Source of the DNA: Haliotis rufescens | Taxonomy: Eukaryota | Assembly (NCBI RefSeq): GCF_023055435.1 | Contig: NW_025963990.1 | Span: 1,364,001 to 1,428,000, forward strand | Direction: 5' to 3' | DNA: 64,000 nt | Shown here: positions 2,071-43,257 of the stretch, piece after piece | Layout: every line of letters starts with the position of its first letter | How positions within the stretch are numbered: the stretch's first letter is position 1 | Position numbers and translations under genes: made by a program | The notes under the pieces: model-generated | Database searches by the model: none | The model's input: the letters and a program-made list of their open reading frames with translations, nothing else | Told to the model about the DNA's origin: nothing

Positions 2071-5000
2071 CTGCCGCACAGAAAAATGTGTACATGATCA
2101 TAAAATGTGGTCTTAAAGTGTTAGCCCTTGGATAATGTCATGATACAGATTATCGTTAGTGGTTCAAATTACGATTGTTCATATCAATGTTTCACATAAG
2201 CCCAAAATAGAAAAAAACAAACAAACCCAATACCTTTATTGTTCTTATGACCTCGACAACCTGCTCCTGACTCTCGTCAAGACCGAGAATCTCAAGAAGA
2301 TCCATGATAGACCCCATTTTCAGGTTACGGACAGAGAACGTCTTTAGGAAAGTACTAGCCTTCTGGAAAAGGGTTGCCAGAGCTGCAATGGATATTTCGC
2401 AATACTAGAATCTAGGTTCATGAATATAGTTCTCATCCACTTGAAAACTCTTTTTATGTAGTTCACAAGCATTTTGTTATGACTGCATTTACATTTTACG
2501 TGTATTTCGTGTGTGCTTACAATATTTTACGGCATGAATGTCACAAAGAATACAGCATGTATCCCCACGCTTTTACAAAACGTAACAATGCGTATCGATA
2601 GCAAAGGCACCTACGCCCTAACTTGTCAGAGTATCTATTGAAAACACATATACCTTACGGTATACTGTGTGTAGACATTGTAAACCAATACCATCGACAT
2701 CGTTATGAATACTGTGCAGCAATCTTATGAAACTAGGTAAATGTATAAGTGTTCTCGATTATCCTATTCTGCTCACCGCCATCTTTTGTAATCTTTGCCT
2801 TTTCTAGGATCTGTAGCTTTCGAGGCTGCATCTTTTGGAACATAGAATCTGGCTTAACTGAAATTAGAATAAACGTATATAAAACAAAAGCAGGTCAATA
2901 CATAACCCTTTCCATAATCATTATGAATATATACTGGAAGCAGAATCCATTGTACGAGTTTGACTACTTTATATCATAATCATGTGTTTATGAATCACTG
3001 TCAAATAGTCATGAAACCAAGAGTTCGTGTTAAAGTGCAAGGCAAGTTAGGTATTCATCTGAACAAGTTACAAAAAAGCAAATTGCATCTGACATAATTT
3101 TGGACACTGATACGTCAAAGTTTGAAATGTATATATGTCTTCCGCAAACGTTTTGAAAGTTTTTTTCTGAGGCATCGGATGCCGTAACCCTGATCAAAGA
3201 ACGTTGGATAGTTGGAGCTGCTGTAAAACTTTCGACATAAAGGGAAGGTGGACTGTTGGAAAGTTGTTGTCATTTCTCTTCTCATACAGTCCTGTGTTGT
3301 CAATATGTTTGCACAGATAAAAAATGTAACAGGTGAGGTGGTTGCACTGGTCGCTTACATTTCTATCTCAGTTGGTTAAATAGGTGTAAGGGAATAAGTT
3401 ACCTGTCCGTTATTGAACGCTATAAGATCGTCGATGTACCCAAAACTACAGTAATACGTCAAATTTCCGTGTTTGCTTTGCGGATCGAGCAGAAATGCCG
3501 TCTCAAATGCATAAAGAAACATATTATCTAGGAAGGGAGCACAAGCGAAGCCCATAGGGATGCCTTCTTCTTACCTACATGTTCCATCCCTAATTTTCAC
3601 ATGGATGTACATTTCTACAGGTGAACAACTAGTTTATTTTAGTTAATAAATCATTTACAGGTTGTATGGTTGAGATATTGTCAGTCAGTCAGTCAGTTTA
3701 CTTACTCAAACACTGAAGTTGCATGGGTGCAATGATAAACACTAATAGTTTTAAACCGTTTTTCTTATATAGACGTCCCCAAAACAATACAGTGGTAAAT
3801 AGTTACCTCCGTTCAACGGGTAACTTCTGGTAAATAAAAGCAACAAAATCCTTTCCATATTCATAAGAAATCTCTGCCAAAAACCTAGTGGATTGTAAGA
3901 TTCGGTCTATATCATGACATGACAAATAGTGACAGCGGGTGTTCGCGAAAAGGTGAGCGTATCCTGCTACAGCAGTGGCGCACGTCACAAAAACACGCAA
4001 ATACACGGTAACATATGGTACAAGGCAAAATAGACAATTGTATCGAACATAACTTTTGTCACCGTAACGTCAAATTTGGAAATGTCCTCCTCATGTCTAC
4101 CATAAAACTTTTTAAAAGCTGTACTTGGGCCTTGAATGTTTTAACCCTGATCAAGCTCAAACCTTAAACCTCAAAACAGAAGTTCCCTACCATTTTCTGC
4201 GTCGGCGACAGAGAAAGGATCTTTTGGGGAATCAATATCCTCGGGATTTTCAATTTCTTTTCCTTCTCTCTTTGGACTGGTGTTGTTTTTCTTCTTACCA
4301 TCCAGACATGCAATGCAGCTTCCAGCTATAGTCTTGTCCTGAGCAAGAAATTGGAAATCAGCCACATCTATTCTATTGCCTTTTCTCTGTGATCGGCGTC
4401 TTCCTCCCGTATTATCATTTCCCACGCACTTATACATGTATTTGCATCTTTATACCAATTAATAATTGTCTTCTTTGACACAGGATGAGATGAATAGTAA
4501 AATGTAAACTGAGCAAGTATACGTACATGTTTATGAGTATATCTTTGTAATAAAATATAGGGCAAAACTTCATTTACCATAAGCATGACCTTTTGGTCGT
4601 CACACTCTTGCACCCAAACTGGGAGCTTGGGTAATCTGGGCTCAAGGTAGCGTGTTGGGTCGATGTAGCCGTCCTTCCGTTTCAGGGAGAAGTGGATGTG
4701 TTCGTTACCTCTGCACGGAGAGTTGGTCGCAACGCCTATCTTCTGCCCAGCACTCACCTGGAGGAGATGTCCAATTATATTGAAAAATAAAGAACAAACT
4801 ATACATTTATATTTTAGAAAAATAATCACACGAAGTCTCATATCAGGCAATAGACCTCCCCACCCTCATTTCCCCCTCAATTGCTTATACTTATAATGGG
4901 AGAGTCTGGTATGGTTAACGTGGAGGCTCTTCATGATAAAAGTTAATTGTGCACTTTTGCACACATGTATTTTTCTGATGATCCTCCTGTGAAGCATGTC

Positions 5001-11000: not shown

Positions 11001-14000
11001 GCCTAATAGTAAATTCGCTGTTTACTAACCTTCTGGTCGCTGCTACTAATTCAGTTAGTAGAATTCACTTGACCTTTTTCTCAGTATTACTATCTACACT
11101 ATAGTTTAAGTTACGACTTACTAGGCTGTCGTCATCCACGTTTGGGTCGATATTGGTTATGATGACCTCAGTTTCCTTCAGAGATCCTGCATTCGGGATG
11201 ATGATGACCTCATATGGGTTGTCAGACCGCCTGATGTTGCCAGAAAACGGAGCCACAATCTGAGGAGATTTAGTTCTGTTGTTATGGACATCACTGTTAC
11301 GGATTATCTGTTCCGAGTGAATTATTTTTTGTATGTTCGGATTCTTGGAGTCTTGGCACAGAATAAATAGGCAAATGGAAATTTTATTTTCCCGACCTAT
11401 GATAATTTGTCAATGAAAGTTAATCATGTCGTAATACATGTACATGCTCTACGTGGACTTTTCAAAAAGGAAAAGATGAAAAACCAAAGCAATTTCTTTA
11501 AAGGATTGTGGAATATGTGACGGATCATCACTCCTCGCTTGACTTTGGCAGAGGTACTAGGTTGACCGCAAGGAACTCTGGGAAGGAGAGTGGAACAACT
11601 TTGGAACGAACGAACCAGTCAACATGAAGCAAACGGTATAATGTTCAGTTGGAATAACTGAAAATATTACTCCTTTCACCGTTTTAAATTTCAAGATAAT
11701 AATTTGAAATTTCACGTTACAGAAGTTGAAATTTCAAGAAGAACATATTTTTATATCTCAGGATGTTAACTTATTAACTTGAAACTTCAACTTATTATCT
11801 TGAAATTTCAACTGATTATCTTGAAATTTCAACTGAATATCTTGAAATATCAACTGAGTGTCTTGAAATTTCAACTTATTATCTTGAAATTTCAAGATAC
11901 TAAGTTGAAATTTCCAGATACTAAAAAAATGGTTCCGTAGATACATGTACCACGCGGCAGACTTTGCGAGCCGACTAGTCTTTGGTATTTTCCCCTCATT
12001 GCCAAGCTCCAGGCAGGGTAACAACAAGTACTACCTTTTAACCTCTTTTAATTTGATAAGACACGGCCGGGGATCGAACCATTGACTTTCTACTCGACCA
12101 TCCGTCTACTGGAGGCCGTCTGTGAGCTTTAGGTATTGTGCCTGACGAGCAAACGCTTTAAGCACAAAACTACTTTGACACCTCTTCCTTCAGAGCTAAA
12201 CGCCCACTTCCTTAATATGAGAAATACTTATTCCTTTAGATAAGAAATAAATCAATTCTGGTATTGATATTATCTTTGGAATCAAATTGTTAGTTTAGAA
12301 AAACAGGTGAAATACATGTACAATGCATCTTTTAAATATTTTTGTTGATAAAAAGTAACACACAAGTTGTTTTCGCTTAATATAAGTAGACGATGTTAAT
12401 CGCCAAACGGTGCTCACGTCTTTGCCAGGAGATACGGTTACATCTATTCCTTTATGCTCGTATTCCTTCCCATTTTTCAATTCGGAGGGGTAGCTGCCAC
12501 TTCCACTGCATCCTGCCCCAGCAATTCGATGGGTGCGGGGGAACTCCTTATGGCACTTGGGGCCGAAGACAAGGTCGATAAGGGAGCGGGCAACACGGTA
12601 TCTGCAAAAGTATGACATCATACGTAGAAAAGTTACATTAGGCCAGCTACAAAATATCCCAAATTCCTATCTCAATAACTTCCCATCATAAATAAAAAAT
12701 AATAAAGAGTCCAGATAAAAAACAATATGAAACACTAGTAGTCAAGACAGCGTTGCCAAAACAAGTATTGCTACTGGTTACACTAACAATAATGTAGGTG
12801 TAATTCAAATGTATACAACGACACCCAACTATGAAATATAATGAATGAATAATGCTAAGCCTTTAGGAAAAACAAAACAAAACAAAACTGAGCCTAATTA
12901 AGGATAGCGATATTACTAATCAATCAACAGCAATCATGTTTATTAAGTGTAGGCCTATCCTTACCCTGCCTTCAGAGCGTTGTAAGCTGTCTTCACGTCG
13001 TTGATTAGAGCTTTCACCGTTTTGAAAGTTTCCAAGAACTTCACTCCCAGTTTCTTCAGAGGTTCAAGAGGAGCCAGGACTTCATCAACAATGTCCTTCA
13101 GCTTGTTCACAACTTCATGTCTCAGCGCAGTCTACAACATTTGAACAGTATGGCACAATTTGCATAAATCATTAGTTCTAGAGTAACTTGCAAAACATTA
13201 AAGTGGTAAAAACAGATGTGAAACACATGTTCAACTTCTGGAAACGAAAACCTAAAAAATAATTTTCATTCGGAAATAGAAAATGTTTTCGACATATTTC
13301 GAACAATCGCACAAATGCTAAGTGATCTAAAAGATTCTTTGGTGTCCATCATACATTCATGCTTATATTTAACATATGTTCCAGGGCAATGGAGGCAAAA
13401 TATATATCCATCTGGTCGGTTGCCTGGTTCACCTGGTGTATAAGCAATGAGTGAATGTTGTTCATTGGCTGTGAATAATTCAGTCTGGATAAGGCGAATC
13501 AGTGACAAATTTATTTGGAACGAGCCATAGCATGATGATACTCAATAAGCCGAGTACAGAGTCTGATAACTGATAGTCTGATACTTTATGCAGCTGTTGC
13601 GTCAAGCATGGGATACTGGGGGCCTTTTTTTCACTAGATTCCTGTGGGACAAGTCCATATTACAACATCCCATTTAGTGATGCCAGTGTCTTTTGGAAAA
13701 GTAAGATCTTGCTCTAGTGCATACAAAACATATACATGCTATCGAGCCACTCACAGCGTTAGTCTTCCCCTTGGAAAACTCCGCTACAGGGTCCCTCGTC
13801 CGGTTCATAACCTCGTTGATCCACTTATTCCCACCTTTCTGCAGTGTCGTCTTTGCCCTTGACCCCGCCTCCACTATCTCTATCACCTGGGAAGCTAGGT
13901 TCATCCAGTCAGGGGGCGTTTCTGTTGTAGCAGGTAAAATACAAGCGTCAACCCTGCTATTAGAAGTATTCTATTTATATGAAATATGTTACCTGTGTGT

Positions 14001-17000
14001 CATTGGAAAGACCAATGTGCTACAGCTTGTAGATGTTTACCAATTTGGTGAATCCCGCGACTGGGTATTCATGACATTGGTATACAATCACTTTAGGAGA
14101 CATGGGAATCTTGTTACATAGATGTTTTTACTTTTTGGTGTAAATATTCACTTGGAAAAAATGTTAAGCGACCTCAGCTATTTTGTCATGAGCTTAGCCC
14201 CAAATCTATGGCATAGAAACCAAAACATGTGCTATTTCCTGAAAGGGTATTTCTTTGTCGATTAATAGGGTCAACAATCATGGCATCTGCAGTTATTTAT
14301 TTATTGAGACAGTTATGGCTGGTACGTTGTAGCAAAAACAATGACCGTTATGCTCCCAACATGACTTCCTGGGACGATATTGTCAATAACGTGTATGACA
14401 GCCACATCCCCGGATGACCGCATCAGCCGTCCTCCTCATGGCCCCAGTCTCATGCTGTACATTTTGCCATCACGGTGTATTGCCTGTAGATTTACTACTG
14501 TAGGTACAGCTTCTGCAACTTGTTCCCCGCGGTGCTCCAGATGTGTTCCAGCGTGTTGAGATCTGGGCCAAGGGATAGTCGTTGTGGCATTCAACTGTGG
14601 AACTGAGGTTTTCCTCATCAGTTTGCCGATTTTTCTCTGCCAATCTTTTCATAACCAAATAGTGGTAACCAAACTGACGACTGACATCTTTGTAGGACAT
14701 TCCTTTTAGCCATACCTATTATTCGCCTCCTTTCGCCGTCAGACCATGTATATAATGAAATAGCATAACAGTAGTGCATGTTAGTCAAGTGTATTTTTAA
14801 AAAACTTACTGGTGGTGGCAAATAATGCATTTTTGGTCTTGAAAATGGCATCTACAAGATTCTTTACTTCCAGGCCAACACTGAAAACCAAGATGCATCC
14901 AAATTATTACATTTCCCAAAATACAAACGATCTAAGACTTGATATTTGAATCCATAGCTTGGTGACTTCATAAAAAAAGATACTCACAGGATGACGTTAC
15001 TAGCGACTGTAGAAATGGCCTGTTTGGGGTCATTGTTGAAGGTCCTAAAGCTATCAGCGATAGCCTTGATAGCCTGAGAAATCATCTTCCCTGCCCTGGG
15101 TATTATAATCGTCACTGTCTCCATCAGTTCCTGAAATGGACAGCATAGCAATGTTCATGTCCTTGTAGAAAAAGGTTCTCCTTCAGTTTTTAAATAAAAA
15201 AACCTAACAGCATTCAATCCCTAATCTTTCTGAAACATGTTGTGATAATTTAACTTTTTTCACTTCAGCAAAACCTAAACCTAGCAAGGAGCCATTTGTG
15301 TGAGGCTCTGATATATGCAAAATTACGTCTTTTAGCCATAGCTGCTAGCGAGTTTGAACTCGATTTTGATTCAGCACCAGACTTGTTCACATGGATTTTA
15401 TGAAAAACCTTTGGGCTTTCTCGCACATTAAGCTCACACATACGCCGTTGTTAAACTGAAGTATTGTCTGAAGCCGCTTCCAACCCACCCATTAACTCAT
15501 AGTACCCTAGGCACACGGACCAACTACCACCCTGCCTAAGTGATATCCAATTATGATAGGGTAACTTTCTGATACCTCAATTACGTTATATAAAGTACTT
15601 CTATATACTCGTGGACATGGCACTATAATAATATTTTACAGAAATTATGCTCAAATAGAATTATTACGGGTGGCGTTTTGACAAGGTATTCCAGAAAACA
15701 CAAGTATTGTGGAATGACATACATTGTAAAAGCTGAGCACCGATGACTTGACTTCCTTGTAAAGATTTGTGATTCTCAATACAAGGTTCCGGGCAGGTTT
15801 AGCAAAGGGAGGCAACTGCTTTTCATCCAGCTGGCCAAAGGCTTCCATAGCGTCGGATGCCTTCTTTCCAACACTGACAACCTGTATCATACCATCCATA
15901 CATTAACATTACCATATCACATTACAAATAAGGAAATAGTAGTAAAGATCCACATGTGGTTTGTTTCCAATGTGTGCAACTGTAATAAATATCCCAGTCG
16001 TTGTTCATTACGAAATATTACACGACTCAGGAAATAAGATTGTAGTCAAACTTGTCATGACATCTCCACATAATTTCACTTTAAACTCATGCCTGAATTT
16101 TCTGTTGAAAATATACTTTGCGAAACTTTGTCTTCGGAGGCGCACGAGAGCAATACCATTACTTAAAAATTCTTAGGACGTAATTTCACTCGCTGAATTA
16201 ACTTCAGAGAACGCATATGAATATAATGCAAGAACGGACCGCCCCCTTAATACATAGGTAAATTAAAGCAAAATTTTATTAATGTTAAAGTTAACAAATA
16301 TGTAGACATTGCATCGATGTATAGAGCGTGACAACATTTGTTCCTGAAAAGTGATCTGGGACCATGGTACCAAATTAATACAATTGTTTTTTTTACTTGC
16401 CCGTGAAGAGATCACCCATTTAATAAACCTACATCTGTATTACGCATTGTTTAATACCAAAACGCATGCTTATGTACTTTCGGAACAAGTTTCACGAACA
16501 AATATTGAAAGCTCTCAGCATCCCTTGGCTTAATCAACGACATTGCGTGTAGAGATGATAGATCACTGAGAGGAGCGGTTATCTCCCATTATTTACAATT
16601 GTCACACAAATGTCGCCAAGCTGGAGTTTTAGCACAAATGTTATTGTGAAACGTAATGATATGACTAAAAGGCAACTAATCTGTATTGAATGTATGGTTA
16701 TTCTGTGTACAACATTATATATGAAACAATACGCTATTCTTTGGTGAATATATCAGATGTATATAATCTGAAATTGTTAAACTATCACTGTCAATAGACA
16801 CTGAATGCGTTTTACAGTGAACATATTTCAGATTTTATGTGATATACAAGGGCTAGCTGAAAAGTTCTAAGCCTAAGTGGGATATCTCAATCGGATTGAA
16901 ACAAACTTTTGCCACCAAGAAGTACAGTCATTCAATGAATCATAGACATTCAAGAACATGTAAGAACTGCGACTGTAGTGTTATTATTGTCTTTGTACCA

Positions 17001-20000
17001 GACCATCTTATGAACCTACACATTGAAATCACCAGAAATGGACAAAACTGGCTATAGGGCAGTCATCAAGTACCTGCACCTGAAAGGGCTAACTCCAACA
17101 CAGATACATGCTGCCCTGGTCTGCACTTTAGGGGATGATGCCTCTTCTTTTTCCACCGTAAAGAAGTGGGCTGCGGAATTCAAGCGTGGCAGAGAGAGCC
17201 TTGACGATGACCCGCCTCCAGGAAGGCCTTCAACAGCAACCATTCCGGAAAACGTTACCCGGATGCATGACATGGTGATGGCTGATCGACGATTGACCAC
17301 TCGACATATTGCCAGTCTTGTGGGCATCTCTCATGAGAGGGTTGAGCACATTATCACCAACAAGTTGGGAATGACAAAAGTTTCTGCAAGATGGGTGCCA
17401 AAGCTTTTGACAGCGGTTCCGAAACGTGTCAGATTCCTGACGTCCCGTGACAATTTATGCCGTTTTGAAGCAGATCCCGATGATTTTTTAGCCCGATTTG
17501 TAACCATGGATGAGACCTGGATTCAACCAGAAACCAAAATTCAGTTAAACAATTGAGGCATCCGGAATCACCAGCCCCCCCCAAAAGCCAAGTTGGTTCC
17601 TTCTGCTTGAAAGGTGATGGCTTCAGTCTTTTGGGATTCCAAGGGTATTCTTCTGATTGACTATCTTGGAAAAGGCCAGACTATCAATGGAAGAGTGAGT
17701 GAGTGAGTGAGTGAGTTAGTGAGTGAGCATGGTTTTACGCCGCTTTTAGCAATATTCCAGCAATATCACGGCGTGGGACACAGGAAATGGGCTTCACACA
17801 TTGTACCCATGTCAGGAATCGAGCCCGGGTCTTCGGCGTGACGAGCGAACGCTTTAACCACTAGGCTACCCGACCGTCAATGGACCGTCAATTATATCAA
17901 TGGAAGATATAATGCTGACCTACTGAGACAGTTTCGTGAAGCTATCAAAGCTAAGCAACGGGGAATGCTCAATAAAGGAGTCCTATTCCACCAAAACAAT
18001 GCTCTTGTTCACAAATCGGGGGTTGCCATGTCAGCGATCCATGATTGTGCCTTTGAACTCATTGACCATCCCCCTTATTCACCCGATTTGGCCACGTCAG
18101 ACTTCCACCTGTTTCCAAAAATGAAAAAGGAACTAGCCGGTCGCCAATTTCCTAGTAATGATGACGTCATTTCAGCTGTGAATGACTTTTTTAGGGTGGC
18201 CGAAGAAAATTTCTTCTTGCCCGGCATCCACGCCTTGCAGCATCGCTGGCAAAAGTGTGTAAACCTGGAAGGGGACTACCTGTAGAAATAAATGAAAACC
18301 ATCGACTTGGTACGGATCTTTCACAGTAAGGCTTAGAGCTTTTCAGCCAGCCCTCGTACATGAGTTTTTATGTTGTGATTAATTATTAAATATGACCTCA
18401 GTGTTACCACAACTCAGCAGTATTACCTTCAAAGAAAACATGTGAATCGAAAACGTCTGATGCCATTGCAAATATGCAACATCAGCTACAGTACATCATT
18501 TCCTACCGAAAGATTATAGTGACGTGAAAATATTAAAAATATGACAAAATTAGGTTTCTTTGTGTTGGCGAAATTTACCCAACTATTTGTTAAGTTAAAA
18601 TGTTTCTTGTTAAATCACTAAAAGTTGCAATTTCAAGTTTTATTTTTGTTTATTCAACAGGACCAAAAGGGGTACACATTTTGATAATGACCCATATGCA
18701 GTACAGGATTACCTGTCTACTTTTCTTGGATCACTCCATTCTAATACTTAGGTAACACGGGGTAGACCAGCCAGTGCCTTCACCCATGACCTATGTTGTT
18801 TTAAGGTGTGTGACAAATGGGACGTGTAACTAATGGGAGGATACCAGAGGAGCTTATACACACTCGATGACCCCAGCAAGCGTGTTGCTAGGCTGACGTC
18901 ACATGGCATTGTTTCGCCGATGGATCTAGCAACAAAATTCCACAAATTACGTCAGCAGGTATTGTGACGTGATTGTAAACTTTGTGGTGCAGGGTCCCGT
19001 TCCACAAGGCGATCGTACTGTAGAGCAAAGACTGTAATAAGTCTATGTAGATGTTACGATAACCTTAGCGCTACGATAACTTTGTGGAACGGACGCGTGA
19101 ATTCTAAAGGTGGGCCGTTGAATATTATTAAATTAATACGTTTCAACTTTGAAGTATTACCCTTTTAAACTCAATTGGATTATGCCGTGGATCGTGTAGG
19201 TGTCAGCCTATTTACACATGACAGTATAATTCTAAAAACGTTATATATGTCAAGCAATAAATAAAATAAATAATAAATAAAATACTAAACTCGCTCCCGT
19301 GTAAAACCAACTTTATTGGAACTCGTGAATAGTTGGGGTATTTGACCCGCTTTAGCTTGTCAGATACCACAACTATTGACTCGTTTCATAAAATTGGTAT
19401 TAAAAACATTTTCATAATCACATGACATTTCTACTAAAAGTTTGTTGTACAGTTCCGACAGTATCATGAGCTTGTAGTTATTAATCACTATCAAATAGTG
19501 ATGATATCAGGTGTTCTAAAAAATATGTGTATCCTTCAAAGGCAAGTCAATTGTTTCGCCTGAGAAAACACGGGAACGTATGGTTCAAATCAAACCCAAG
19601 AGACGAACACTCAACCTTATCTGGCAGCTCCTCCAGTGATTGCCTGAAACCATTTATCATGTTAGCAAACGAGAAGTCTCCTCTGACGATACTAAAAAAC
19701 AGGTCCAGACTTTTGCCTAGAGCGCCAGCAGCACCACCTTTAACAGCATCGTAGATCTCAACCAGTCTCTTGAGGTTGTCCACGCCGTACTCCTGCAACA
19801 GGGAAATGTAGAAGTGCACAATTTAAAGTAAACCCTAAAAAGATATCTTTGCAAATCACATAATTACATGAATAAGACATATTCTCTTTTAAACATGTTG
19901 TCAGATTTAATTTGATCTGATATTATCCTTGTCGGCATTTTGACTATGAATTGTCTTCCCATCACACTGTAGGGCACCAGACCTCTTGACTAATAATGCA

Positions 20001-23000
20001 ACTGAGCATATACATATAATAATGATTCAAACTAGAACAGGACGCTAGACATTGAAAACATTATGGGTAAACTCTTCAAATGGTAAACACAAGAGAGAGA
20101 ATTTCTATATGATGAAGAACACCGCGTTTCGCTGTATATGCTTACTCCTTCATTAGGTGAATGAATACTAGGACTCAACGAGCATATAATATGTACACAT
20201 GAAGATAAAAGTAATAAGATAGTAAAGGTGGAAAGGTTAACGAACGAAGTCAGCAGTTAATTAGCGCCCATTGGTGATTAGAAATGGACAAATGGAAGTC
20301 AGGAGTTCAATTAGAATTGTATAATAAGCTATGGTCAATTAGAGGCAGGGGTTAAGTACACTGATTTGTAATTAGCAATGGACAAATGAAAGCCAGCTGG
20401 ATGAATAAGAGTAGTTGGTAGCCCCGTTCTGGAACCGCTCCAGGCTTCTGATTGGGCGGTTTCTGTGATGACGTCACTTCCGGTTTCGGTTTTGTCACGT
20501 GCCTGCGCATGCGCGAAGGTGGCATTGTGGGTCATGTGCGCGCATCCAAGATGGCGACACTTCCGTTTCAGGTGGCGCGTGCCTCCAAGATGGCGGCATT
20601 TCCGTTTCTGGGAGGCGTGCCCACATCCAAGATGGCGGCACGTCCGTTTCCGAGGGGCCATCTCCCCATCCAAGATGGCGACACGGCGTCTCCAAGATGG
20701 TGGGAGGAGGGAGGGCGGGATGACGGGTAGGCGGGAGGAGGGAGGAGGTTTTTTTGTTTTTTTTTCGGTTTGATGGGTGTGTGGGTGGGTGGGTGGTTGT
20801 GGTGGTGGAGAGGGTAGTCAAGGCAATGGATGAAAGCGTTCTTTTGGGAGAGATGGGTGGCCCTGAAAAGGGACGTTTTGTAGAAGAAGTAGATTACTTC
20901 TTCTCCCACAAAGGGGCTGTTCTACAAAGGCAGGGATGGCCTGCCACCTGTCTCCTGACAGGACACTTACTGGTGTGGCATAGTCGCCGCACGTAGGTGT
21001 CCTTCAGGACAGTGTTCCAATAGATGCACTGAAATGTGCCATCGTGTTCCCTTGTGCCATGCGCATAGACTGGCAGGCACCCTTTGTACTTATTGCATTG
21101 CCATGGAGGAATGTGTTCCAAGTCCCAGCGGCAGTCTTTGCACAGTGTCAAAGGGTGCGCAACTGAAACCAGATCCAAATCCCAATTTTCTTCATTAGTT
21201 TGCATGATGATGACGATCTCATGGAATGCAGTGTGAGTGGCTTCGCTCTTGTTTTACAGAAAAGGGACTGACACCCTGCTTCCTGATTGGTCCAACACGC
21301 AGCGCACCGATTGGTTCCTTCCGGTGCCTGGTCTGAGTCTCAGTTTTCAAAACTGGACCGACCCTTGTGTCTCTTTTTCATAGGAAATGGATTTTACCAT
21401 GGGAGAGAAAGCACAACTCGGCTCGGGTGCTGTCTTTTGATTGGTCGGTGCTGTCTTCTGATTAGTCGAAAACCCAAGCCTCTGATTGGTCAGGTTTCGA
21501 TCCTGTTTTGGGGAAGGTTTGTCTATAAATCAGACGTTCAGTCAATCTTATAGTGCAGACGTTCATCAGGCACTCATCGCCATTATGACGAGCAAGCAGA
21601 ATGATACGTACCATTTGCAGAGGAAAGACACAACTCGACCCAGATGGTTAAGAACCATACGTATCGTTTGACATTCAACCCAGACTACTTGGAAACCGTA
21701 CCCCCGGACCGCGTCCCCATTGAACTGCCGTCTTTATTTGACAGGGTGATCGATGACTGTTATCAACAGATGTCAGGCCAGAAGCGGGATCGTACTTGTC
21801 AAGATATCGACCACCCCGCTGTGAACACTCCCATACGGATTCCCTTTCGGCGCTTTGAAGATCTTCATTGCCTAGATATCTTGCATGCTGTGGAAAAAGT
21901 CCAACAGTCCAACAATGCCACCATGGTTGTGACTTCAGTACACGTAGCAGATCCCGACAGGCTAGGATCAACGACAACGTAGACGACGATCCTGATGGAG
22001 AAGCTCAACTCACTTCCATGCAGCGTGAATGTAGTGCCTATCGCCACAACAATAAGCTGTAACAGTGGTCAAGTGATGTGTCATCTCTGTTTCAGGGAGG
22101 CCATAGACTGTACCTATTTTACTGATGAGGCGTCCCAAACATGTTTGGAACCTATTTGGGTCAATATGATGAAGGACCATATCTTATGGTGACCCCATCT
22201 TCACTCGAAGAGGCTGAACATGAAAGAGGAAAGGTTTCGCGTTGTTGTAGGGACATGCAAAGCACTCCCTCCTCAGTTGTCTTTTCGCATTTCCTATGTA
22301 TCTGGTTGTTCTTGTTGTTCATTATTAAACATTGATTGATTGAACTGACTCTTTGTGTCTTGATTGGTCTCGAATTCAATAGGGTGCTGAACCGAGGGTA
22401 GAGGCTGAGTTGAGTTTGTCAAGTTTGTGCACATGCTTGTTGAAAAAGTAAAGAATTAAAAGATAGATAAAATAGATAAAAGAGAAAGGACATGCTTGAA
22501 AGATCAGCTGCCTGGTGTCAGTCATCCCAGTACTTCACATATGACGTCAAGTGGTGATAATGATAATGATGAAGAGGTCATTTCCTCCCCGTCCCCTGTC
22601 TGTCATGTCTGTGCACATGTTCGTTGTAAAAGTTAAGAAAAAAATATAGAAAAAAATAGATAAAAGAGAAAGGCCATGCTTGAAAGATCAGTTGCCTAGT
22701 GTCAGTCACCTAGAACACAGGATAGAGTCTTATCACATCGTCAGTGACACGCAAGATTTCATGGAGTCCACATCGTGTTCAGACTGTTGTAAGACATTTT
22801 CTAGAAGAGATGTCTTACTTCGTCATAAAAAACACGTCCATGGCTTATCACCAACACTATCACCTATGAGACCAGAGACATCACCGTCGCCTCCGCCGCT
22901 GCCGCGGTGTATGGGGAAAAGACGGTGTATGAATGCCATGCCACCATCAGGGATGTCCCGATACCGAGTGGGTTTCTGAAAAGGCGAGAGAAGAAGGACG

Positions 23001-26000
23001 AGGTGACCGTGTTATCTGTTATTGCTGCGGTGTGACACTCTGCCAATGGAAAGCCACAGACAAACCCTGGAAGGAACATCTGAAGCACGCCAAAGTCCCC
23101 TGCGAATACTTGTGTGTGTTTTGTCCTGATGGAGAAGTGAACGAAAAATACAGACGTTTGTTGTCTGAAGAAGCACAGAAGAGAAGAGTGGAGTGTCTTG
23201 TTCACTCCTAGTGACAAAGTTTCCTGTTCACTACGTTTTTAGGAATGTACAGACGTACAAACCCTAGTGGCTTATCACCTAGTGTTCACAAAAAATCACA
23301 GGTACGCCCCTAATCCTGTGACTTTTGTTTTGTTCTGTTGGTTCACGTGAGCGGGGGATTAAACAGTTGAACAAACATAAGTGTTGTGTTGTCTTTTTTT
23401 TTAGGATGAAGAAAAATAACAAAATAGGATCGAAATGCACACCCAAGAAAAAAAAGGATCGAAGTCTGACCAAACAGTGACCGAGCTCATATCGTGCTGG
23501 GCTCTGATTGGTCGAACTGAGGTTGTGCTTTCTCTCCCATGGTAAAATCCATTTCCTATGGAAAAGAAACACAAGGGTCGGTCCGTTTTGGAAAACCGAG
23601 GTGCAGACCAGGCGCCGGAACGAACCAATCGGTGCGCTGCGTGTTGAACCAATCAGGAAGCAGGGTGTCAGTCCCTTTTCTATAAAACAACAGCGAACCC
23701 ACACACTGTATTCAATGAAATCAACTATGTCGTCTCGACACAGCTGCATGAAGTGTCAGACCGACAGTCACAGTTACCTGTACTGCCCTGAAGTGACATG
23801 TACCGAGTGCCACACTCAAGGTCACCGCCACTATGTCTGTCCGAGGATAAGCAGTCAAGATAAGCAGAAAACTCCCCAGGGGCCATGTCAAAACTGTCAA
23901 GTCGTGGGTCATTTCGCTGCAGATTGTCCAGAATCCAGTCGAAAGAAGACTTCCCAGGGCCCATGTTACAACTGCCAAGTCGTGGGTCATTTCACTGCAG
24001 ATTGCCCAGAGCCCAGTCGAAAGAAAACTTCAGCAGCGCCGTCCATGTCGACACCGGTGACACCAGTGACACAAGTGATACAAGTGCTTCATCTCATAGA
24101 AGTCATGCATATCGATGTCCGTGCCCTAAAAGAATGCATCGCACATCTCCACGCGGGCATCACACCTCGTCTAGGGAAAAGAAAACGGGACAGAAGCCCC
24201 TCAAGAAAGCACCCTTCAAAGCGCCAACGACGTCATCAGTCTGAGGAGGAGGAGGAGATGGAGGATGAAGGAGATAGATAATCTGAGCAAAGTGACTAAC
24301 GAATGGGACCTGCTGCTCCACTGTTTTTCCAGTTTCCAATCGTTTCCAGTTTCCAGTTTTTCCAGTGTTCCTACATTTTCCTGCTGTTTCCAGTTTCCAG
24401 TTTGTTTTCCAACGGCCCTTTTTAGGGCCACCAATCACTCCCGAAAGAACGCTTTCATCCATTGCTTTGACTACCCTCTCCACCACCAACCCCACGCATG
24501 ACCCACAATGCCCCCTTCGCGCATGCGCGGTCACGTGACGAAACCGAAACCGGAAGTGACGTAATCACAGAAACCGACCAATCAGAAGCCAGGAGCGGCT
24601 ACCAACTACTAATGAGCCTTGAGGGATAGATGGTGGCACAGATTAATTAATCGATTCCCAAGTCCCAAGTTCTAGGTTCCCTGGTCACGGTTCATGGCTG
24701 GCAAGTATCACCCGATATCAATGGCGTCTTGTAGTTTCATTTGACGTCAGTTGTTGTTGGTGTTGGATAGGACTTTGGTAGCTTTCCACATGATGGTATG
24801 GTCTTGGTTCTGATGAGGGCCCTGGTAGGGTGTGGTGATTCTGAATAAGTGATTGAGTATGGTGTTACAGTGCTAGAAATAGTCTTCACACATTTTACTC
24901 ATGTGGGGAATCGAACGTCGGCTGCGAGCGAACACTTTAACCACTGGGCTACCCCCACCGTTTGCGTCTTGATTTGGAGTTCTTGGGGGAGAAGGGTAAC
25001 TGTTGAAGGGAGTGAAGGGTTTCTTGAGAGCATCAGGATGGCAAACAGATTTAGCACGTCGGGTGAGGCTGGCGATGATAGCTTGTTTTATCTTGGGATG
25101 GTGGCAAGAGTTGAAGTGGATGTACTGGTCTATGTGTGTGTGTCGTCGTGCGGTACACTGATGTTCTTAGGCCATCATCTGTGGTTTGGAGGTACACGTC
25201 TAGGAAGGGAAGTTGTTGATTACTTTCGGTCTTCATGGTGAACTGGACTCTCTGGTGTTGGGTGTTGAGATGTTTGAGGCGCTCTGTCAGTCGTTTGGTG
25301 GGCTATGGAGGTGAATATGTCATAACATACCAGCAGAGGGGATTTACTTTGTTCTTCTTAATAAAGAAGTTCTATTAATGCTCTCTCTTATGTAGGAAAG
25401 ATAAAAGGTACACGTTACATGTACATGTTCACAGGATGTGGGTAATTCACTACATGTACTCGTTATCCTGGTTTACCATAAACGTACAAATTGTGGTATT
25501 CCTAAATTGCAGTGTGAAGTCAAGAGGAATAGTTTAAAGTGAGAAGACTTAGGATGATTTTAACAGTTTGGGAGCATTTGAGATATGCCATTTGAGATGT
25601 GCCTGTGGCATTTGAGATGTACCATATCTTAAATGCCACAGACAAAAGCTGTTTTTTAACTTTTAACTGATCAGACTAGATCACACAGAAGTGCGATTTA
25701 TCAGGCTGCTTTGTCAAGTCACCTGCAGCATGTTAAGGTTGTAAGCAGCCCCTCCCTTGAAGCAGATCCTCGCCGAAAAGAAATCCTGGTTGATGCCCAT
25801 GAAGCCAAGGTGGATGCGGGCGTATGCTTCATCGTGGATGTTCACTCGCATGTGTCCACTCAGAGGCGCTGTAACATGCAGTGATCATATGCAGTATATG
25901 TGGATGAAAATCATTTGTTCCATGATTTGGAGGAACATGAAATACACGAAATGTTTCAAACTGTCCTTATGTGGAGAGATAGATAATTTGAAAACTCGGA

Positions 26001-29000
26001 GATCCCATAACTTCATTTCCAAGAAACACTTCAAACGAAATGATTTAGTTTGTGTTCAGATTGATTTGGATTGCATTAACACTAATTCCATGTTTGGTTA
26101 TTCGGCCAACGTTTTCAAATGTCAACCTAACATTACAATTAATGATGTCTAATAATCTGCAATGTAGTCTGAATCACGTAAACAATAATAAATACTTATT
26201 AGCGATTTTATTTTAAACAATGTTGACACAAAATAACGGTGAAAACATGAATGTCATTGACACGAGCATACCTATTTTGAAGTCTAAAGCATTGTTCATG
26301 GTCAGTCCAAAGGACACTCCAATGGTTGTTGACCCAAGCATCTTCTTCCAGTCTACGCTGGGTGATGGCAGTTTGAACTCGATCTTCTCATCAAAGAATC
26401 CCCTTTTGTGTCGGTCGTGTACGTCAATGTCCCGCCGGCCAACATAGCGAGGGTCCACGTGAAAGAAAGATCCATTTATGGCTCTGAAATGTATGTATAC
26501 ACATGCTCAAAAGTTAAGCGCGACCATATTCATAGTCTCTTTATTTCACGTGTGGGAATCAGAAATACGAAATATGATGATGTATGACTGAATGAGGCTT
26601 CCATAGTTTCTTGAACCCAAATTTGTCCAGATACCACAAGGAAAGCATGCTTTACGTGTTGCTGCAGTTCCCCTACCCTATAGCGAAATTCAAGTTTCAG
26701 ACACGTGGTTGCATTTTGCTCCTGTGTGAGATTCCCCTTCCAATAGAGGTTGAAAATCAGCCATGGTGAGGAGAAAGTTAACGAACGCTGAAAGATGGCA
26801 AGTGATAGGCATGAAAAATGCTGGCATGTCATGCAGGGCTATTGCAAGACAAATGGGTCGTCATCACAGTGTTATCACTCGTTTGATTGTCAAACATGGT
26901 CAAACCAATGATGTCAATGACAGGCATAGGTCTGGTAGGCCAAGAAAGACCTCTAACAGAGAGGATAGATGTCTTTTCAGGATAGTCAGACGGAATCGTC
27001 TGATATGGTGTCGTGCCCGTAGTCGATGGAACTTGGCGAACTGGAGAAGGATCCATTGCTCTGACGAGTGTCGAATGCTGCTACGAACTGTTGATGGTCG
27101 AATACGTGTTTGGAGGCAATGTTACACTCGTTTTGCACCAAGAAACATCAAGAAGACCTTAGCATGTGGCGGGGGGTCTGTCATGATATGGGGTTGTGTT
27201 TCCTTCGGCTGCAAAATTCCGCTGGTGACAATTCGTGGAAACGTGAATGGCCAACAATACCACGATGCCGTTCTTCGTCCAGTGGTAGTCCCTCATTTTG
27301 ACAACCATCCTCTTTAGACAAGACCTGTTTATATGGACGACAATGCTAGACCACACAGATCTCGGGGAGTTTTCGCTTATTTGCGTCAAGAAGCTATTGC
27401 CACTCTTTCTTGGCCGGCCTGTAGTCCGGATCTTTATCTGATTGAGCATCTCTGGGACATTCTTGGCCGGAAAATCAGACATCGTGATCCCCCAGTTCAA
27501 AATCTCGCTGGACTTGAAGCCGCACTTCATGGAGAATGGATCCGTTTGCCTCAGAGAAGCATTCAACGACTTGTAATGAGTATGAGGCGTAGGCCTGAGG
27601 CTGTGGTCAATGTCCGTGGATCATACACACGTTACTGACGTTTCTGTCTTGCAATAGACTCTGCACTCCTCAGGGTGTCTATGTGACACCCGATATGGTC
27701 TGCTGATATCATTCAATGTTTTCTAATCCTTCAATTTCTGGTCTTCGGTAAAATTCCTTTTTGCTCATATTCTTTTGGAACACAAGATAAACTTGCTTTG
27801 GGACAACTTTTGCATCACATGAGGTTTACATATACGGCTTGTAACAATCGTACATCTCGTTATAATAGTCATCATTAAGTGCCAAAAGTAACAGCTCACA
27901 AATATGGTGGGTGGCGCTAAACTTTTGTGCATGTGTATATATGTCAGGTTTAACATCGTGTTGAACAATTTTTCAGGTGCGTATAATCACATCGTTACAA
28001 ACTACATCATCGCCCCACTGAAGTACTGGTCAACGTGCAATCCATATATGCTGGTACAAGAGGTCAACGGGAATGAGTTGTTTAACACATAAATGTTTTC
28101 AACATGTACCCTTCTTTTCTGTACATGGGAGCGATTATTGCGGCCTTTGGGTGGGCCTGGTATTGTAGCAGAGCTTCATATCGGACCTCCTCGTCGTCAT
28201 CGTACAGGGCTGTCTTCAACATCAGATGTGCTGCCTGCAACAGGGGATATATCAACCATACATACATGCTGTCTTCAACATCAGATGTGCTGCCTGCAAA
28301 AGGTGATATATCATTCATACATGCATAACTGCCTTCAACATCAGACGTGCTACCTACAACAGGGAATACAGCATGCAGACATACAGGCTGTCTCTAACAT
28401 TACATGTGCTGCCTGCAACAGGGAATATATCATGCATACATAGAGGCTGTCTTCAACATCAGATGTGCTGCCTACAACAGGGAATATATCATGCATACAT
28501 ACAGGCTGTCTTCAACATCAGATGGGCTGCCTGCAAAAGGTGATATATCATTCATACATGCATAACTGCCTTCAACATCAGACGTGCTACCTACAACAGG
28601 GAATACAGCATGCAGACATACAGACCGTCTTCAACATTAGCTGTGCTGACTGCAACAGGGGATATATCATTAATACATGCATTACTGTCTTCAACATCAG
28701 CTGTGCTGCCTGCAACATGTGATTTATCATTAAGACATGCATAACTGTCTTCAACATCAGATGTGCTGCCTCAACAGGGGATATATCATTAATACATGCA
28801 TTACTGTCTTCAACATCAGATGTGCTGCCTGCAACAGGGAATACAGCATGCAGACATACAGGCTGTCTCTAACATTACATGTGCTGCCTGCAACAGGGAA
28901 TATATCATGCATACATAGAGGCTGTCTTCAACATCAGATGTGCTGCCTACAACAGGGAGTATATCATGCATACATACAGGCTGTCTTCAACATCAGATGT

Positions 29001-32000
29001 GCTGCCTGCAAAAGGTGATATATCATTCATACATGCATAACTGCCTTCAACATCAGACGTGCTACCTACAACAGGGAATACAGCATGCAGACATACAGAC
29101 CGTCTTCAACATCAGCTGTGCTGACTGCAACAGGGGATATATCATTAATACATGCATTACTGTCTTCAACATCAGCTGTGCTGCCTGCAACATGTGATTT
29201 ATCATTGAGACATGCATAACTGTCTTCAACATCAGATGTGCTGCCTCAACAGGGGATATATCATTAATACATGCATGACGGTCTTCAACATCAGATGTGC
29301 TGCCTGCAACAGGGGGTATATCATTAATACATGCATAACTGTCTTCAAAATCAGATGTGCTGCCTGCAACAGGGGACATATCATTCATACATACATAATC
29401 GTCTTCAGCATCAGATGTGCTGCCTGCAACAGGGGATATATCATTCATACATACAGGCTGTCTTCAACATCAGATGTGCTGCCTGCAACAGGGGATATAT
29501 CATTAATACATGCATAACTGTCTTCAACATCAGATGTGCTGCCTGCAACAGGGGATATATCGTTAATACATGCATAACTGTCTTCAACATCAGCTGTGCT
29601 GCCTGCAACATGTGATTTATCATTCAGACATGCAGACTGTCTTCAACATTAGCTGTACTGCCTGCAACAGGGTATATGTCATTCATACATAGAGGCTGTC
29701 TTCGACGTCAGATGTGCTGCCTCAACAGGGGATATATCATTAATACATGCATAACTGTCTTCAACATCAGCTGTACTGCCTGCAACAGGGGATATATCAT
29801 TCATACATAGAGGCTGTCTTCAACGTCAGATGTGCTGCCTGCAACAGGGGATATATTGTTAATACATGCATAACTGTCTTGAACGTCAGATATGCTGCCT
29901 GCAACAGGGGGTATATCGTTAATACATGCATAACTGTCTTCAACATCAGCTGTGCTGCCTGCAACATGTGATTTATCATTCAGACATGCAGACTGTCTTC
30001 AGCATTAGCTGTACTGCCTGCAACAGGGGATATATCATTCATACATACAGGCTGTCTTCAACATCAGATATGCTGTCTGCAACAGGTGATATATCATTCA
30101 TACACGCATAACCGTCTTTATCATCAGATATGCTGCCTGCTATATCATTAATACATGCACAACTGTCTTCAACATCAGTTGTGCTACCTGCAACAGAGGG
30201 TATATCATTAATATATCTATGTCTTTTACATCTTTAACATCAATGTACTATCAACACCACGAAACATATAATTCATACAAACATGACTGTCCTCAACATC
30301 AAATTTGATAAATACAACAGGGGATATATTCTTTGCATTTATTATGCCTCAATGTGAGATTGACCAATCAGGGAGAAGCACTACAAACCCCATTTGAGCC
30401 CGTATACCGTCAGTAAAAATCCAAGATGGTTGTTATTGACCTAATATGAGACCGTATACCGTCAGAAACAGCCTGTTTGAATTTTCCAACACCAACCTCA
30501 CATATTTCACATATTTCATTTATTCTGGCACGGAAATTCGTTATTTGACACTATTTTGTGTTTTAATATCATTAATTGTGATGTGCAGTAACGTTATTAT
30601 TAAAAAATATAGAGAAAAAAACTTACAATGGAGATCACTGAGTTACAAATAGCAACGTCATAGAACTTATTATACGATGACGTCACAAACAAGAAACGTG
30701 ACGCAAGTTACGTCACATAGAAATAGAATATAGACAGCAGCCGGTCGTTAGGGAAAAGCGGACTGCTATCAAGTTACAATGGCCCGCAGATTTCTGATAA
30801 CATTCGGGCAATGTTTTGAATTCTATCCACTTTAGCTATTATTCTTGTTTGAACGTTCAGATTCAGTGCATTATATATTCCATTGATAACGTTTGTGATT
30901 ACATTAAAACATTAAATCGGAAACATATGTATTGGTCCTGTCGTTTATACCGGATGTCCCTGTCAAGTTTTCAGTTTGACATGACTATTGAGATACCAAA
31001 TAGTGTAAACCTTTCGGCATCATAAATTCGTTATGGTGTCTTTAGTTGCCGTAAACGGTGTCAAATTAGGTTAGCAGAAATATATTGGGCGAGGTCGTCC
31101 TTTACATTGCTGAGACACTTCACATCCTCGTCTTGATTCCACCAGTTTGTTTTCATAATACTTCATGCATTAAAATATTCGCGTCTGTTATTATTGTCTT
31201 ATACAATATTGTGATACACCGAATCCTAAGATCCATCATCAATCAGATTTTAAATGTTGAAGGAGTACAACTGGGAATTGTCATTGTCAAAAAATATGTT
31301 CAAATTTTCCTATTTGAGCTGCTTCTATATGACCACGGAACTTTCTTATCGCCTTGTAGTACGCAAGATACTTACATGTTTAGTTTAAGTAAAAAAGATA
31401 CTCAACATTCTGTAGTAAACAGAACCAAATGTATAAAACATTTAAATCATTTATTGAAATACCCAATCTTTAAAAATTAAAAGTTGTTGACAAATCGTTT
31501 TCAATACCCCTTCGTGTCGGTACTTCCTCATGGCGTGAATCCCCGCTCGCTTCACCCACTGAGAGTTGGTGGTGTTGACATGTGACACAATCATCTCAAA
31601 TGATTGGTCGAGACCGGCATTACCCAGAGATCCAAGCAAGATAACTCTCCAGCGGTCGTCATCAAGGACTTCACGCTCTGTCATGGTTGACCGTTTCTGA
31701 CGGAACAGCCAGGGATCTGGAACAAGTAATTCTCACCTGGATCATGAACATGAACTCTGTGAGTTAGTGATTGTGGTCAGCAAGCGGCAGAAATACTCAA
31801 GCTATGCCACAGTCTACAAAGAATCGAGTTACTCACAGGCAAACCAATGACTAAGATAAACAACGGCCCCCAGCATAGGGAACAATGTACGAACAATCGT
31901 GCGTGACCACTGAATTCTCTCGACATTCAGGTGGTACTGGATACCTATGTTTACCCGGAAACCCTTTGGTGTGCACATTGGGAAGTTCTTTGTCTGCACT

Positions 32001-41000: not shown

Positions 41001-43257
41001 ATGGCGGCGGCTCCCTTCTTCATGGCAACAGCTTCATCGTCGTCGTCGGGAGGGTGGTAGACGCGGAGAATCTCGCCATGGGGCGTGATCACAAACGAGA
41101 ACCTGCGAGATACAGTTTCAATGTAGACATGAAGATCTGATATATGTCATGGTCAAGCCTGACACATCTTGAAGACATGAGTTTTCGGGAACTGTAAAAA
41201 TATTATTTGCGATTGTTTGCATTTATCCTGTCTTCTTTAAGACGTTGTCTCACCTTCACGAAAGGTAGGAATTACAACGTCCTTCCCCAGACTGGAGGTG
41301 ACGCTACACCGCGCAGGATTGCTTTACCACGATGATAGCTGTAAACCTTATGATGCAGTATAAACTCACTTTATCACTCCCTCCCTCCCTCATTCACCCA
41401 TTGCCATACTCTTGCTTTCTAGACACGATAAACACCTTGGATATATATTACATTTCCGTCAAAGCCCAATACATTTCTACTTCAGATCACTCCTGCAATG
41501 AATATGGGCGATCATATATTAACACGTTTACACGCTTTTTGTATTGTCTTTTACCATTTTGAGAAGTCCAAACGGTGGTCGATGGTGTCTGAAAAGAAAC
41601 AAGAAAAAAAACTGTTTATACAGTAGATTGCGGATATTCTGTAACACGACAAGAAAGGCAGTATAAACCTTAAGGAGAAGCTAATGCTTCGAGACAACCG
41701 TGTTCGAGATATATGTTTGGTTAGCAGCTGAATCATTCGGCTTCCCCTTTCACAGCAACAAACTGAATCATTCGACTGCCACTAACACAGCAACAAACTG
41801 AATCATTCGACTCCCCCTTACATAGCAACAAAGTGAATCGTTCGGCTTCCCCTTTCACAGCAACAAACAATACAACCTGTATTGTATATTGTCTGTCAAA
41901 TATTGTGTATCAAATAACTAATGTTACGTGCCATGTATATTCGGCAACGCCTATCTGAGGCATTCCGTGTTCTGTCATCCATGTATCCCCAGACTGTAGC
42001 AGCGTCTTGGGGCTTGAGTAACATTCCCTTCACTATACATAGCCAATAATAAAGACACACATGTCTTCCTGGTTGATGTTAAATTACAACAAAGTGAATC
42101 GTTCGGCTTCCCCTTTCACAGCAACAAACTGAATCATTCGACTGCCACTTACACAGCAACAAACTGAACCATTCGGCTCCCCCTTACATAGCAACAAAGT
42201 GAATCGTTCGGATTCCCCTTTCACAGCAACAAACTGAATCATTCAACTGCCACTTACACAGCAACAAACTGAATCATTCGTCTCCCTCTTACATAGCAAC
42301 AAAGTGAATCGTTCGGCTTCCCCTTTCACAGCAACAAACTGAATCGTTCGTCTGCCACTTACGCAGCAACAAATTGGATCGTTCAGTTCACCCTTACAAA
42401 GCAACAAAGTGAATCGTTCGGCTTCCCCTTTAACAGCAACAAAGTAAATCGTTCGTCTGCCTCTTACACAGCAACAAATTGAATCGTTCAGTTCACCCTT
42501 ACAAAGCAACAATGTGAATCGTTCGGCTTCCCCTTTCACAGCAACAAAGTAAATTGTTCGTCTGCCACTTACACAGCAACAAATTGAATCGTTCAGTTCA
42601 CCCTTACAAAGCAACAAATTGAATAGTTCAGTTCACCCTTAAAAGCAACAAAGTGAATTGTTCGGCTTCCCCTTTCACAGCAACAAATTGGATCGTTCAG
42701 TTCACCCTACCAAGCACCAAAGTGAATCGTTTGGCTTCCCCTTTCACAGCAACAAATTGAATCGTTCGTCTGCCACTTACAAAGTAACAAATTGAATCGT
42801 TCGTCTGCCACTTACGCAGCAACACAGTGAATGGTTCGGCTTCCCCTTTCACAGCAACAAAGTGAATCATTCGGCTGCCACTTACAAAGTAACAAATTGA
42901 TGGTTCGGCTGCCCCTTTCCTGGTTTACATTAACTTTGGTGAATAGCCCCAGACTTTCATCAGACTGTACCTATGTCTTGCCTGCGTTTAACCGTATTGG
43001 CGAGTGGGGATAGTATTAGTAGCAGCAGCAGCAGCAGCAAAAGCAGCAGCAGTAGTAGTAGTAGTAGTAGAAGTAGTAGTAGAAGTAGTAGTAGTGGTGG
43101 TGGTGGTATTAGTATAAGTATTAGTATTAGTAGCAGTAGTAGTAGTAGTAGCAGCAACAGAAATACCAATAGTAGTAGTGGTGGTAGTAGTATTGGTATT
43201 AGAAGTAGGTATTAGTAGTAGCAACAGTAGGAGTTGTAGCAGCAGTAGAAGAAGTAA

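Follow-up and report, generated by a model that had tools for sequence, protein, structure and literature searches.

Structure of the element in the window

The window analysed here is a stretch of 64,000 nucleotides (nt) from Haliotis rufescens (assembly GCF_023055435.1, contig NW_025963990.1, positions 1,364,001 to 1,428,000 of the forward strand). At positions 20410-24610 it contains a 4.2 kb element with AGTAGT tips, flanked by AATAAG and AATGAG (Table 1). The element belongs to a Polinton/Maverick family and represents its polymerase half in deleted form. An initial annotation of the window had described two outward-facing genes behind mirror-image promoter cassettes, but had overlooked the deleted Polinton, the histone stem-loops at the gene ends and the division of the family into two kinds of element.

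The promoter-like block, here called the module, forms inverted arms at 21233-21417 and 23522-23706, which are 185 nt long and 91% complementary; the alignment extends to about 21222 and 23722. Each copy contains two CCAAT boxes 24 nt apart, located in the left copy at 21286 and 21310 on the minus strand. The inverted pair and its CCAAT boxes were thus found as annotated, whereas an intact TATAAA is present in the right copy only and not in the left one. As annotated, the left copy leads into an open reading frame (ORF) for a Cys/His protein (gene A) and the right copy into a zinc-knuckle ORF (gene B). Similarity had been said to stop just before the start codons of both. The first ATG of the right ORF lies inside the last aligned bases, and only its next in-frame ATG, at 23727, is outside them.

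Compared with longer copies, the window element shows two main deletions, one of about 5.3 kb from the polymerase gene into gene Z (relative to copy L063) and one of the BIR1 unit, which falls within the module. The 130 bases upstream of the left module core are of the type found in the BIR1 slot (median identity 0.85; other slots reach 0.67 at most), but it is gene A that follows the core. The left module therefore appears to be a recombination chimera of two direct module copies, formed with the loss of BIR1.

Table 1 Features of the element in the window (positions are those of the window)
Feature	Position	Strand	Remarks
Left target-site duplication AATAAG	20404..20409	+	right copy AATGAG 24611-24616, 5/6 identical
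Left terminal inverted repeat	20410..20879	+	AGTAGT tip, subterminal repeats; inner end is the histone-type stem-loop
Histone 3' stem-loop and downstream element behind gene A	20833..20879	-	RF00032 26.4 bits, E 0.00035, below gathering score 34; one stem pair broken
Gene A, small Cys/His protein, 103 aa	20894..21205	-	unnamed family; no Pfam family
Left promoter-like module	21222..21420	-	apparent chimera: BIR1-slot upstream part and A-slot gene; TATA not intact
Module upstream half, facing the polymerase gene	21421..21584	+	reversed CCAAT 21440, 21485; TATAAA 21524
Protein-primed DNA polymerase gene, 5'-end remnant	21585..21969	+	82% to L063 9943-9228
Gene Z tail	21973..22113	+	
Inhibitor-of-apoptosis (IAP) gene BIR2, remnant	22911..23211	+	PF00653 E 8.8e-9
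Right promoter-like module	23515..23718	+	CCAAT 23625, 23649; TATAAA 23681
Gene B, zinc-knuckle protein, 188 aa	23715..24281	+	zf-CCHC PF00098 E 1.6e-10
Histone 3' stem-loop and downstream element behind gene B	24409..24455	+	RF00032 36.7 bits, above gathering score 34
Right terminal inverted repeat	24411..24610	-	subterminal repeats missing at junction near 24498

Two reciprocal kinds of element

A search with the termini led to a second kind of element, here called virion-type, with the same ends and the same module, with ATPase, integrase, capsid and protease-like genes, and with no polymerase. Among 41 mapped elements (40 with both ends located), which were chosen through matches and cannot include an element longer than 20 kb, 28 carry the polymerase only, 12 the integrase and virion genes only, one neither and none both. 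Distances between matches, a comparison to which this size limit does not apply, were examined with one place per element, taken from the tables of scored matches, and with distant integrase and capsid families below about 44% left out. An integrase match was located within 25 kb at 0 of 119 polymerase places of the family and a capsid match at 3 of 119, compared to both at 4 of 4 places of sister Polintons. With a C-terminal polymerase query, integrase or capsid matches were found at 2 of 83 family places versus 6 of 6 sister places.

The polymerase of copy L063 matches PF03175 (E 2.7e-33), and the integrase of L136 matches PF00665 (E 3.4e-12), the latter being found in virion-type elements only. 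The ATPase of these elements matches Pox_A32 (E 3.8e-6, above the cut-off). The capsid protein has a weak match to Capsid_N (E 0.005), and 417 of its relatives are named F54H12.2-like, one of them with PF21738, names which we take to denote the Maverick capsid. The protease was recognised by motif and position, its match to S273R being weak (E 0.61). The capsid protein has close relatives (52-98%) that are named from Haliotis species, indicating that the family is common to abalones. No relative of the polymerase was found in the viral contigs searched.

Judged from the sequences, the two kinds carry complementary gene sets between shared termini, as the parts of a bipartite virus would. Polymerase and integrase on one element, the combination of a canonical autonomous Polinton, were not found in the mapped set. 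The family is classified by its genes as Polinton-derived, but neither of its halves alone constitutes a canonical autonomous Polinton.

A second polymerase-only subtype, which has an Ala-rich ORF, was observed in L105, L106, L107/L108, L119, L158/L159, L189/L190 and L199/L200; the scanned copy of this subtype has no histone stem-loop. At L149/L150, two polymerase-type elements follow each other in the same orientation, separated by about 1 kb.

The module across the family

The search of the genome with the block yielded 578 first-look candidates, and the best 40, which were scored, are all 86-100% identical to it. The polymerase-type element is about 11.7 kb long and features the module four times, in the order end, A, module, BIR1, module, polymerase, module, Y, Z and BIR2, module, B, end. 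The virion-type element is about 10.3 kb long and has a single module, between gene C and the ATPase, integrase, capsid and protease genes. Two of the modules of the long elements are internal and stand in direct orientation relative to their neighbours.

In the fetched loci, 173 of 207 module copies are directed towards a mapped gene no more than 500 bp away (B 41, Y 32, C 30, A 29, BIR1 27, Ala-rich ORF 10, others 4). Another 33 have no mapped gene, and one, pointing at a protease fragment, was counted in neither class. TATAAA is retained in 120 of the 126 modules of the A, B, C and BIR1 slots. The upstream half of the module faces the polymerase gene, or the ATPase gene in virion-type elements, which makes the module look two-way. 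Motifs and position together indicate that the module is very probably a promoter; its CCAAT boxes and TATA suggest one that would be read by RNA polymerase II in both directions.

In the subtype with the Ala-rich ORF, a stretch with two close modules leads into a repeated region that looks non-coding. Upstream of a distant relative of gene A (P0126), a stretch reads like translated CCAAT repeats, which hints at a CCAAT-rich promoter there too.

Genes behind the module

The slot between the module and a histone-type 3' end is occupied by four different ORFs, namely A, B, C and the IAP gene BIR1. Gene C is the third end gene, located in the slot of the virion-type elements, and its first codons resemble those of gene B. 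The layout of A and B seen in the window is kept in 18 of the 20 polymerase-type elements in which both end genes were scored. In L037/L038 the two genes have changed places with respect to the core, as an inversion between inverted modules would produce, and L047/L048 has gene B at both ends together with an exact target duplication. The initial annotation had proposed exchangeable cargo slots and suggested aligning several copies to see whether different ORFs fill them. Different ORFs do fill the slot, and a swap and a doubling occur, but the layout is mostly fixed. A and B are hence fixed genes of the family with rare exchange rather than free cargo. An ORF in L043 (O223) was considered as a fifth cargo gene and rejected, since it has the appearance of a sequence inserted between gene A and its module.

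The pooled ratio of nonsynonymous to synonymous substitutions (dN/dS), calculated over pairs that are not independent, is 0.28 for A (22 distinct open copies), 0.63 for B (27), 0.53 for C (20) and 0.43 for BIR1 (20), and ranges from 0.28 to 0.71 for all 12 genes tested. These values support the conclusion that A, B, C and BIR1 are real genes. The gene A family has eight conserved Cys/His positions, two of which are lost in the window copy. Distant, unnamed relatives are present in ENA data (E 2e-13 to 3e-4), while gene A has no Pfam match and the homology searches gave no family that could be named. Two models of its fold reached a predicted local distance difference test score of 52 (poor) and 72 (fair), and a fold search with the second gave no significant match. 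For gene C, no homologue was found in the searches made.

Histone-type 3' ends

A pattern scan found a histone-type stem-loop within 450 nt behind 31 of 36 copies of gene A, 32 of 41 of B, 28 of 33 of BIR1 and 23 of 29 of C, corresponding to 114 of 139. Behind the other genes it is scarce (polymerase 0/59, Y 1/35, Z 0/44, BIR2 1/51, ATPase 1/63, protease 0/22, capsid 0/15). The repeated unit is thus composed of module, ORF and stem-loop. The hairpins lie on the sense strand downstream of the genes, at the inner border of the terminal repeat and, in the case of BIR1, internally. The gathering score of Rfam RF00032 (34) was reached four times in one scan, three times in L063/L064 and once in the window locus, and ten times in a further scan of element copies. 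A blastn match to the terminal block had made the protease gene a candidate for the same type of end; this was rejected, as that block lacks the hairpin there.

The pattern scan gave 129 hairpins, including five in stretches where the pattern could match by chance and 12 without a mapped upstream gene. The second G-C pair is kept in 124 of them and U1/U3 of the loop in 127, and 111 are fully paired. A purine-rich downstream element, AAAGA, follows 122 of the 129 at a spacing like that of the host. The host core histone genes H2A, H2B, H3 and H4 form a tandem unit of about 4.1 kb that is present in very many copies (L261, G000:C110:26000-31000). Compared to the ends of host H2A, H3 and H4, the 3' end of the element is 80-82% alike over 40-50 nt, downstream element included, and its stem differs from the host histone stem by one pair that is changed on both sides. 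Based on these similarities, messages of A, B, C and BIR1 would probably use the host histone 3' pathway.

Termini and target duplications

Both kinds of element are flanked by 6-bp target duplications, with at most one mismatch in 38 of the 39 elements for which both ends were found. In the first set this applies to 25 of 26 (virion-type 11/11, Ala-type 7/7, polymerase-type 7/8), and in 13 of 13 further elements the duplication is exact. End pairs were located in 26 of 52 elements and then in 13 of 23 that were retried, the others being decayed, extending beyond the fetched stretch or not found. The terminal inverted repeats have AG..CT tips, which together with the 6-bp duplications are those of a Polinton.

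In a rough tree of 26 termini the two kinds are mixed, with 7 label changes for 11 virion-type rows, a number as low as this occurring in 99 of 500 shuffles. One supported clade contains two termini of each kind, with bootstrap values that had not settled. Bases from about 8 to 25 of the terminal repeat vary between copies and match between both ends of one copy (L051-L200, e.g. L135/L136, L118/L141 and L158/L159). This pattern is consistent with correction of one end by the other during protein-primed replication, and with a varied pool from which many copies integrated separately.

Older copies and sister Polintons

Older polymerase-type copies carry an ATPase gene between Z and BIR2. In a tree of 53 ATPase rows, these old polymerase-type ATPases fall among the virion-type ones and apart from those of the sisters (support 100), which indicates that the two kinds share one gene pool. 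Complete sister Polintons are present in the same genome; their proteins are 43-58% alike to those of the family, and they do not match its termini or its module.

In the older virion-type copies L109, L111, L229 and L240, gene C is followed by a piece of the protease gene, which looks like the result of one end being copied over the other. In a separate family, an integrase and a longer ATPase of about 520 aa occur twice, the copies being inverted relative to each other and separated by about 5.5 kb (G000:C1:34856285-34862385, C13:17947369-17953762 and C112:67306029-67312166).

Other features of the window

Open stretches resembling exons of one host gene were observed on the minus strand at 4368-4841, 12295-12621, 15651-15899, 19600-19810 and 26270-26480. 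They show a weak match to Peptidase_M23 (E 0.0035), and the element would sit in one intron of that gene. Remnants of Tc1/mariner transposases are located at 17038-18285 and 26763-27638 (HTH_48, HTH_38, DDE_3) as well as at 340-1085 and 49852-51142. Satellite arrays at 28060-30330, 41600-43000 and 45500-47500 have units of about 59, 35 and 6-12 bases.

Discussion

We favour, with moderate confidence, the view that the module is repeated in the polymerase half of a split Polinton, the halves of which likely complement each other as a two-part virus. In the mechanism proposed, the module would be a two-way RNA polymerase II promoter and would drive the accessory genes. Their messages would be cut by the host SLBP/U7 pathway instead of being polyadenylated, and production of the IAP and zinc-finger proteins would likely be coupled to S phase. 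Replication of both DNAs, starting at the shared ends, would fall to the polymerase half, and the virion half would integrate and package both. Recombination between inverted modules would give the swap of A and B, and recombination between direct modules the loss of BIR1 in the window. That the two kinds depend on each other is, in our estimation, somewhat better than an even bet. The account that combines promoter, histone pathway and complementation stands level with this or slightly lower. More tentative, and judged a little more likely to be wrong than right, is the full picture of a bipartite integrating double-stranded DNA Polinton virus, the anti-apoptotic and zinc-finger genes of which act as histone-gene mimics and are expressed in S phase via U7 and SLBP.

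Several observations weigh against this account. Decayed copies join the polymerase to capsid or ATPase genes (L142/L143, L210, L232) or gene Z to the integrase (L238). Such hybrids imply that complete or recombinant genomes existed, and may themselves be recombinants or remains of an ancestor in one piece. The best candidates only were scored (90 of 448, 139 of 316, 140 of 2013 and 150 of 210), the census of 41 elements has the limits given above, and so have the dN/dS pairs. The distance from stop codon to hairpin is 11-132 nt, compared to 26-30 nt in host histone genes. A host U7 RNA was not recovered, RF00066 giving one match below the cut-off that is not U7-like and a pattern search none. 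No stem-loop at the gathering score was found in five sister-Polinton loci or in the polymerase-type subtype with the Ala-rich ORF. Comparison of the module with host histone promoters by blastn revealed no homology, and in local alignments against shuffles 4 of 32 had p < 0.05, none of them for the two copies in the window.

An origin of the module as a captured host histone promoter was considered and is not supported by these comparisons, in which the matches are short. The best alignment covers 18-19 of 21 nt of the H3 leader (p 0.005, uncorrected). Short motifs common to the module and the histone genes are GATCC and CATTC, which we assume to be histone promoter motifs, although no literature source for this was found.

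The strongest alternative, which we regard as unlikely, is that each kind is a deletion family of its own, mobilised by a complete helper in one piece, which would be a free virus or a copy absent from the assembly used. The two kinds would then not depend on each other, while the promoter and the histone-type ends would be as described above. The hybrids L142/L143, L210, L232 and L238 are in line with such a helper because they join polymerase-side and capsid-side genes, and so is the use of a single assembly with only the best candidates scored. Polymerase-less insect polintons, moreover, are reported to stay mobile beside complete relatives (10.1101/2025.02.07.637071). Nevertheless, polymerase and integrase occur together at none of 119 and of 50 places among the matches listed, and each kind carries the genes that the other lacks. 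In both, the genes remain open and show purifying selection, a constraint not required of parasites that rely on a complete helper. The complete sisters, with their low protein similarity and no match to the termini or the module, also speak against this alternative.

It is improbable that the module is mainly an element acting at the DNA level, such as a replication enhancer or recombination site, with the hairpin as a passenger in the terminal repeat or a decoy. The rearrangements do fall in the module, and the hairpin does lie at the inner edge of the terminal repeat. Against this stand the orientation of 173 of 207 modules towards a gene start and the TATA kept in 120 of 126, as well as a sense-strand hairpin that follows four genes, including the internal BIR1, and has a downstream element and spacing like those of the host. 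The other origin suggested by the initial annotation, a terminal inverted repeat that was once far longer and had one of its genes replaced, is highly improbable: although L047/L048 has gene B and its module at both ends, so that copying from arm to arm does occur, and modules of the A and B slots are slightly more alike within an element (0.924) than between elements (0.909; own partner first in 5 of 15), long elements have four modules of which two are internal and direct, the left copy in the window derives partly from the internal BIR1 slot, and A and B are unrelated to each other and each conserved across the family.

Relation to known systems

Polintons are defined by polymerase and integrase (PMC8502044, PMC6431247). 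The abalone family shares with Polintons/Mavericks (adintoviruses, polintoviruses) the PF03175 polymerase, the rve integrase, the A32-like ATPase and the capsid and protease-like genes, as well as terminal inverted repeats, the 6-bp target duplication and IAP accessory genes (IAP homologues: PMC8502044). It differs in that polymerase and integrase/virion genes are on separate elements of 10-12 kb, compared to 13-25 kb for known ones (10.1101/2023.08.22.554363). That survey kept blocks with all five core genes within 20 kb and would miss halves; more generally, pipelines that require all core genes on one element would miss a split Polinton. Like the virion-type elements, polymerase-less insect polintons have the termini and virion genes without polB and are still spreading, with genes inside the terminal repeats (10.1101/2025.02.07.637071). 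There, complete close relatives exist and polB was lost alongside a transposon insertion, whereas in the abalone family polymerase-only elements form an abundant reciprocal kind and no complete copy occurs among the matches listed.

Bidnaviruses and the Drosophila Vesanto virus are likewise segmented with matching termini, and the PolB of bidnaviruses is related to that of Polintons (PMC8502044, PMC8363768). In the Acheta domesticus segmented densovirus, replication and capsid cassettes are on two segments (10.1101/2022.10.20.513106, PMC10267136). These viruses are single-stranded with a parvovirus capsid, while the abalone family has the Polinton capsid module and an integrase, and both of its halves integrate. 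With replication-dependent histone genes (RF00032), the accessory genes have in common the hairpin, its flanks, the purine-rich downstream element, short intron-less ORFs and a probable CCAAT/TATA promoter, but their ORFs are not histones.

In the literature searched (mostly titles and abstract openings), we found neither a Polinton in two parts nor a histone 3' end on any gene of a virus or transposon. Histone mRNA is described as the only known metazoan mRNA with a stem-loop end (PMC6303110), and SLBP is reported to have been sought in large DNA viruses and not found (10.64898/2026.10.14.759114). The main result of the analysis is a Polinton family in two reciprocal halves, with accessory genes built like histone genes.

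If the interpretation is true, the family would document a stage in the transition of a DNA virus from one piece to segments, the genome also containing its one-piece sisters and intermediate copies. It would also be a virus able to exploit a pathway so far considered exclusive to histone messages, by means of non-histone genes with a complete histone 3' signal.

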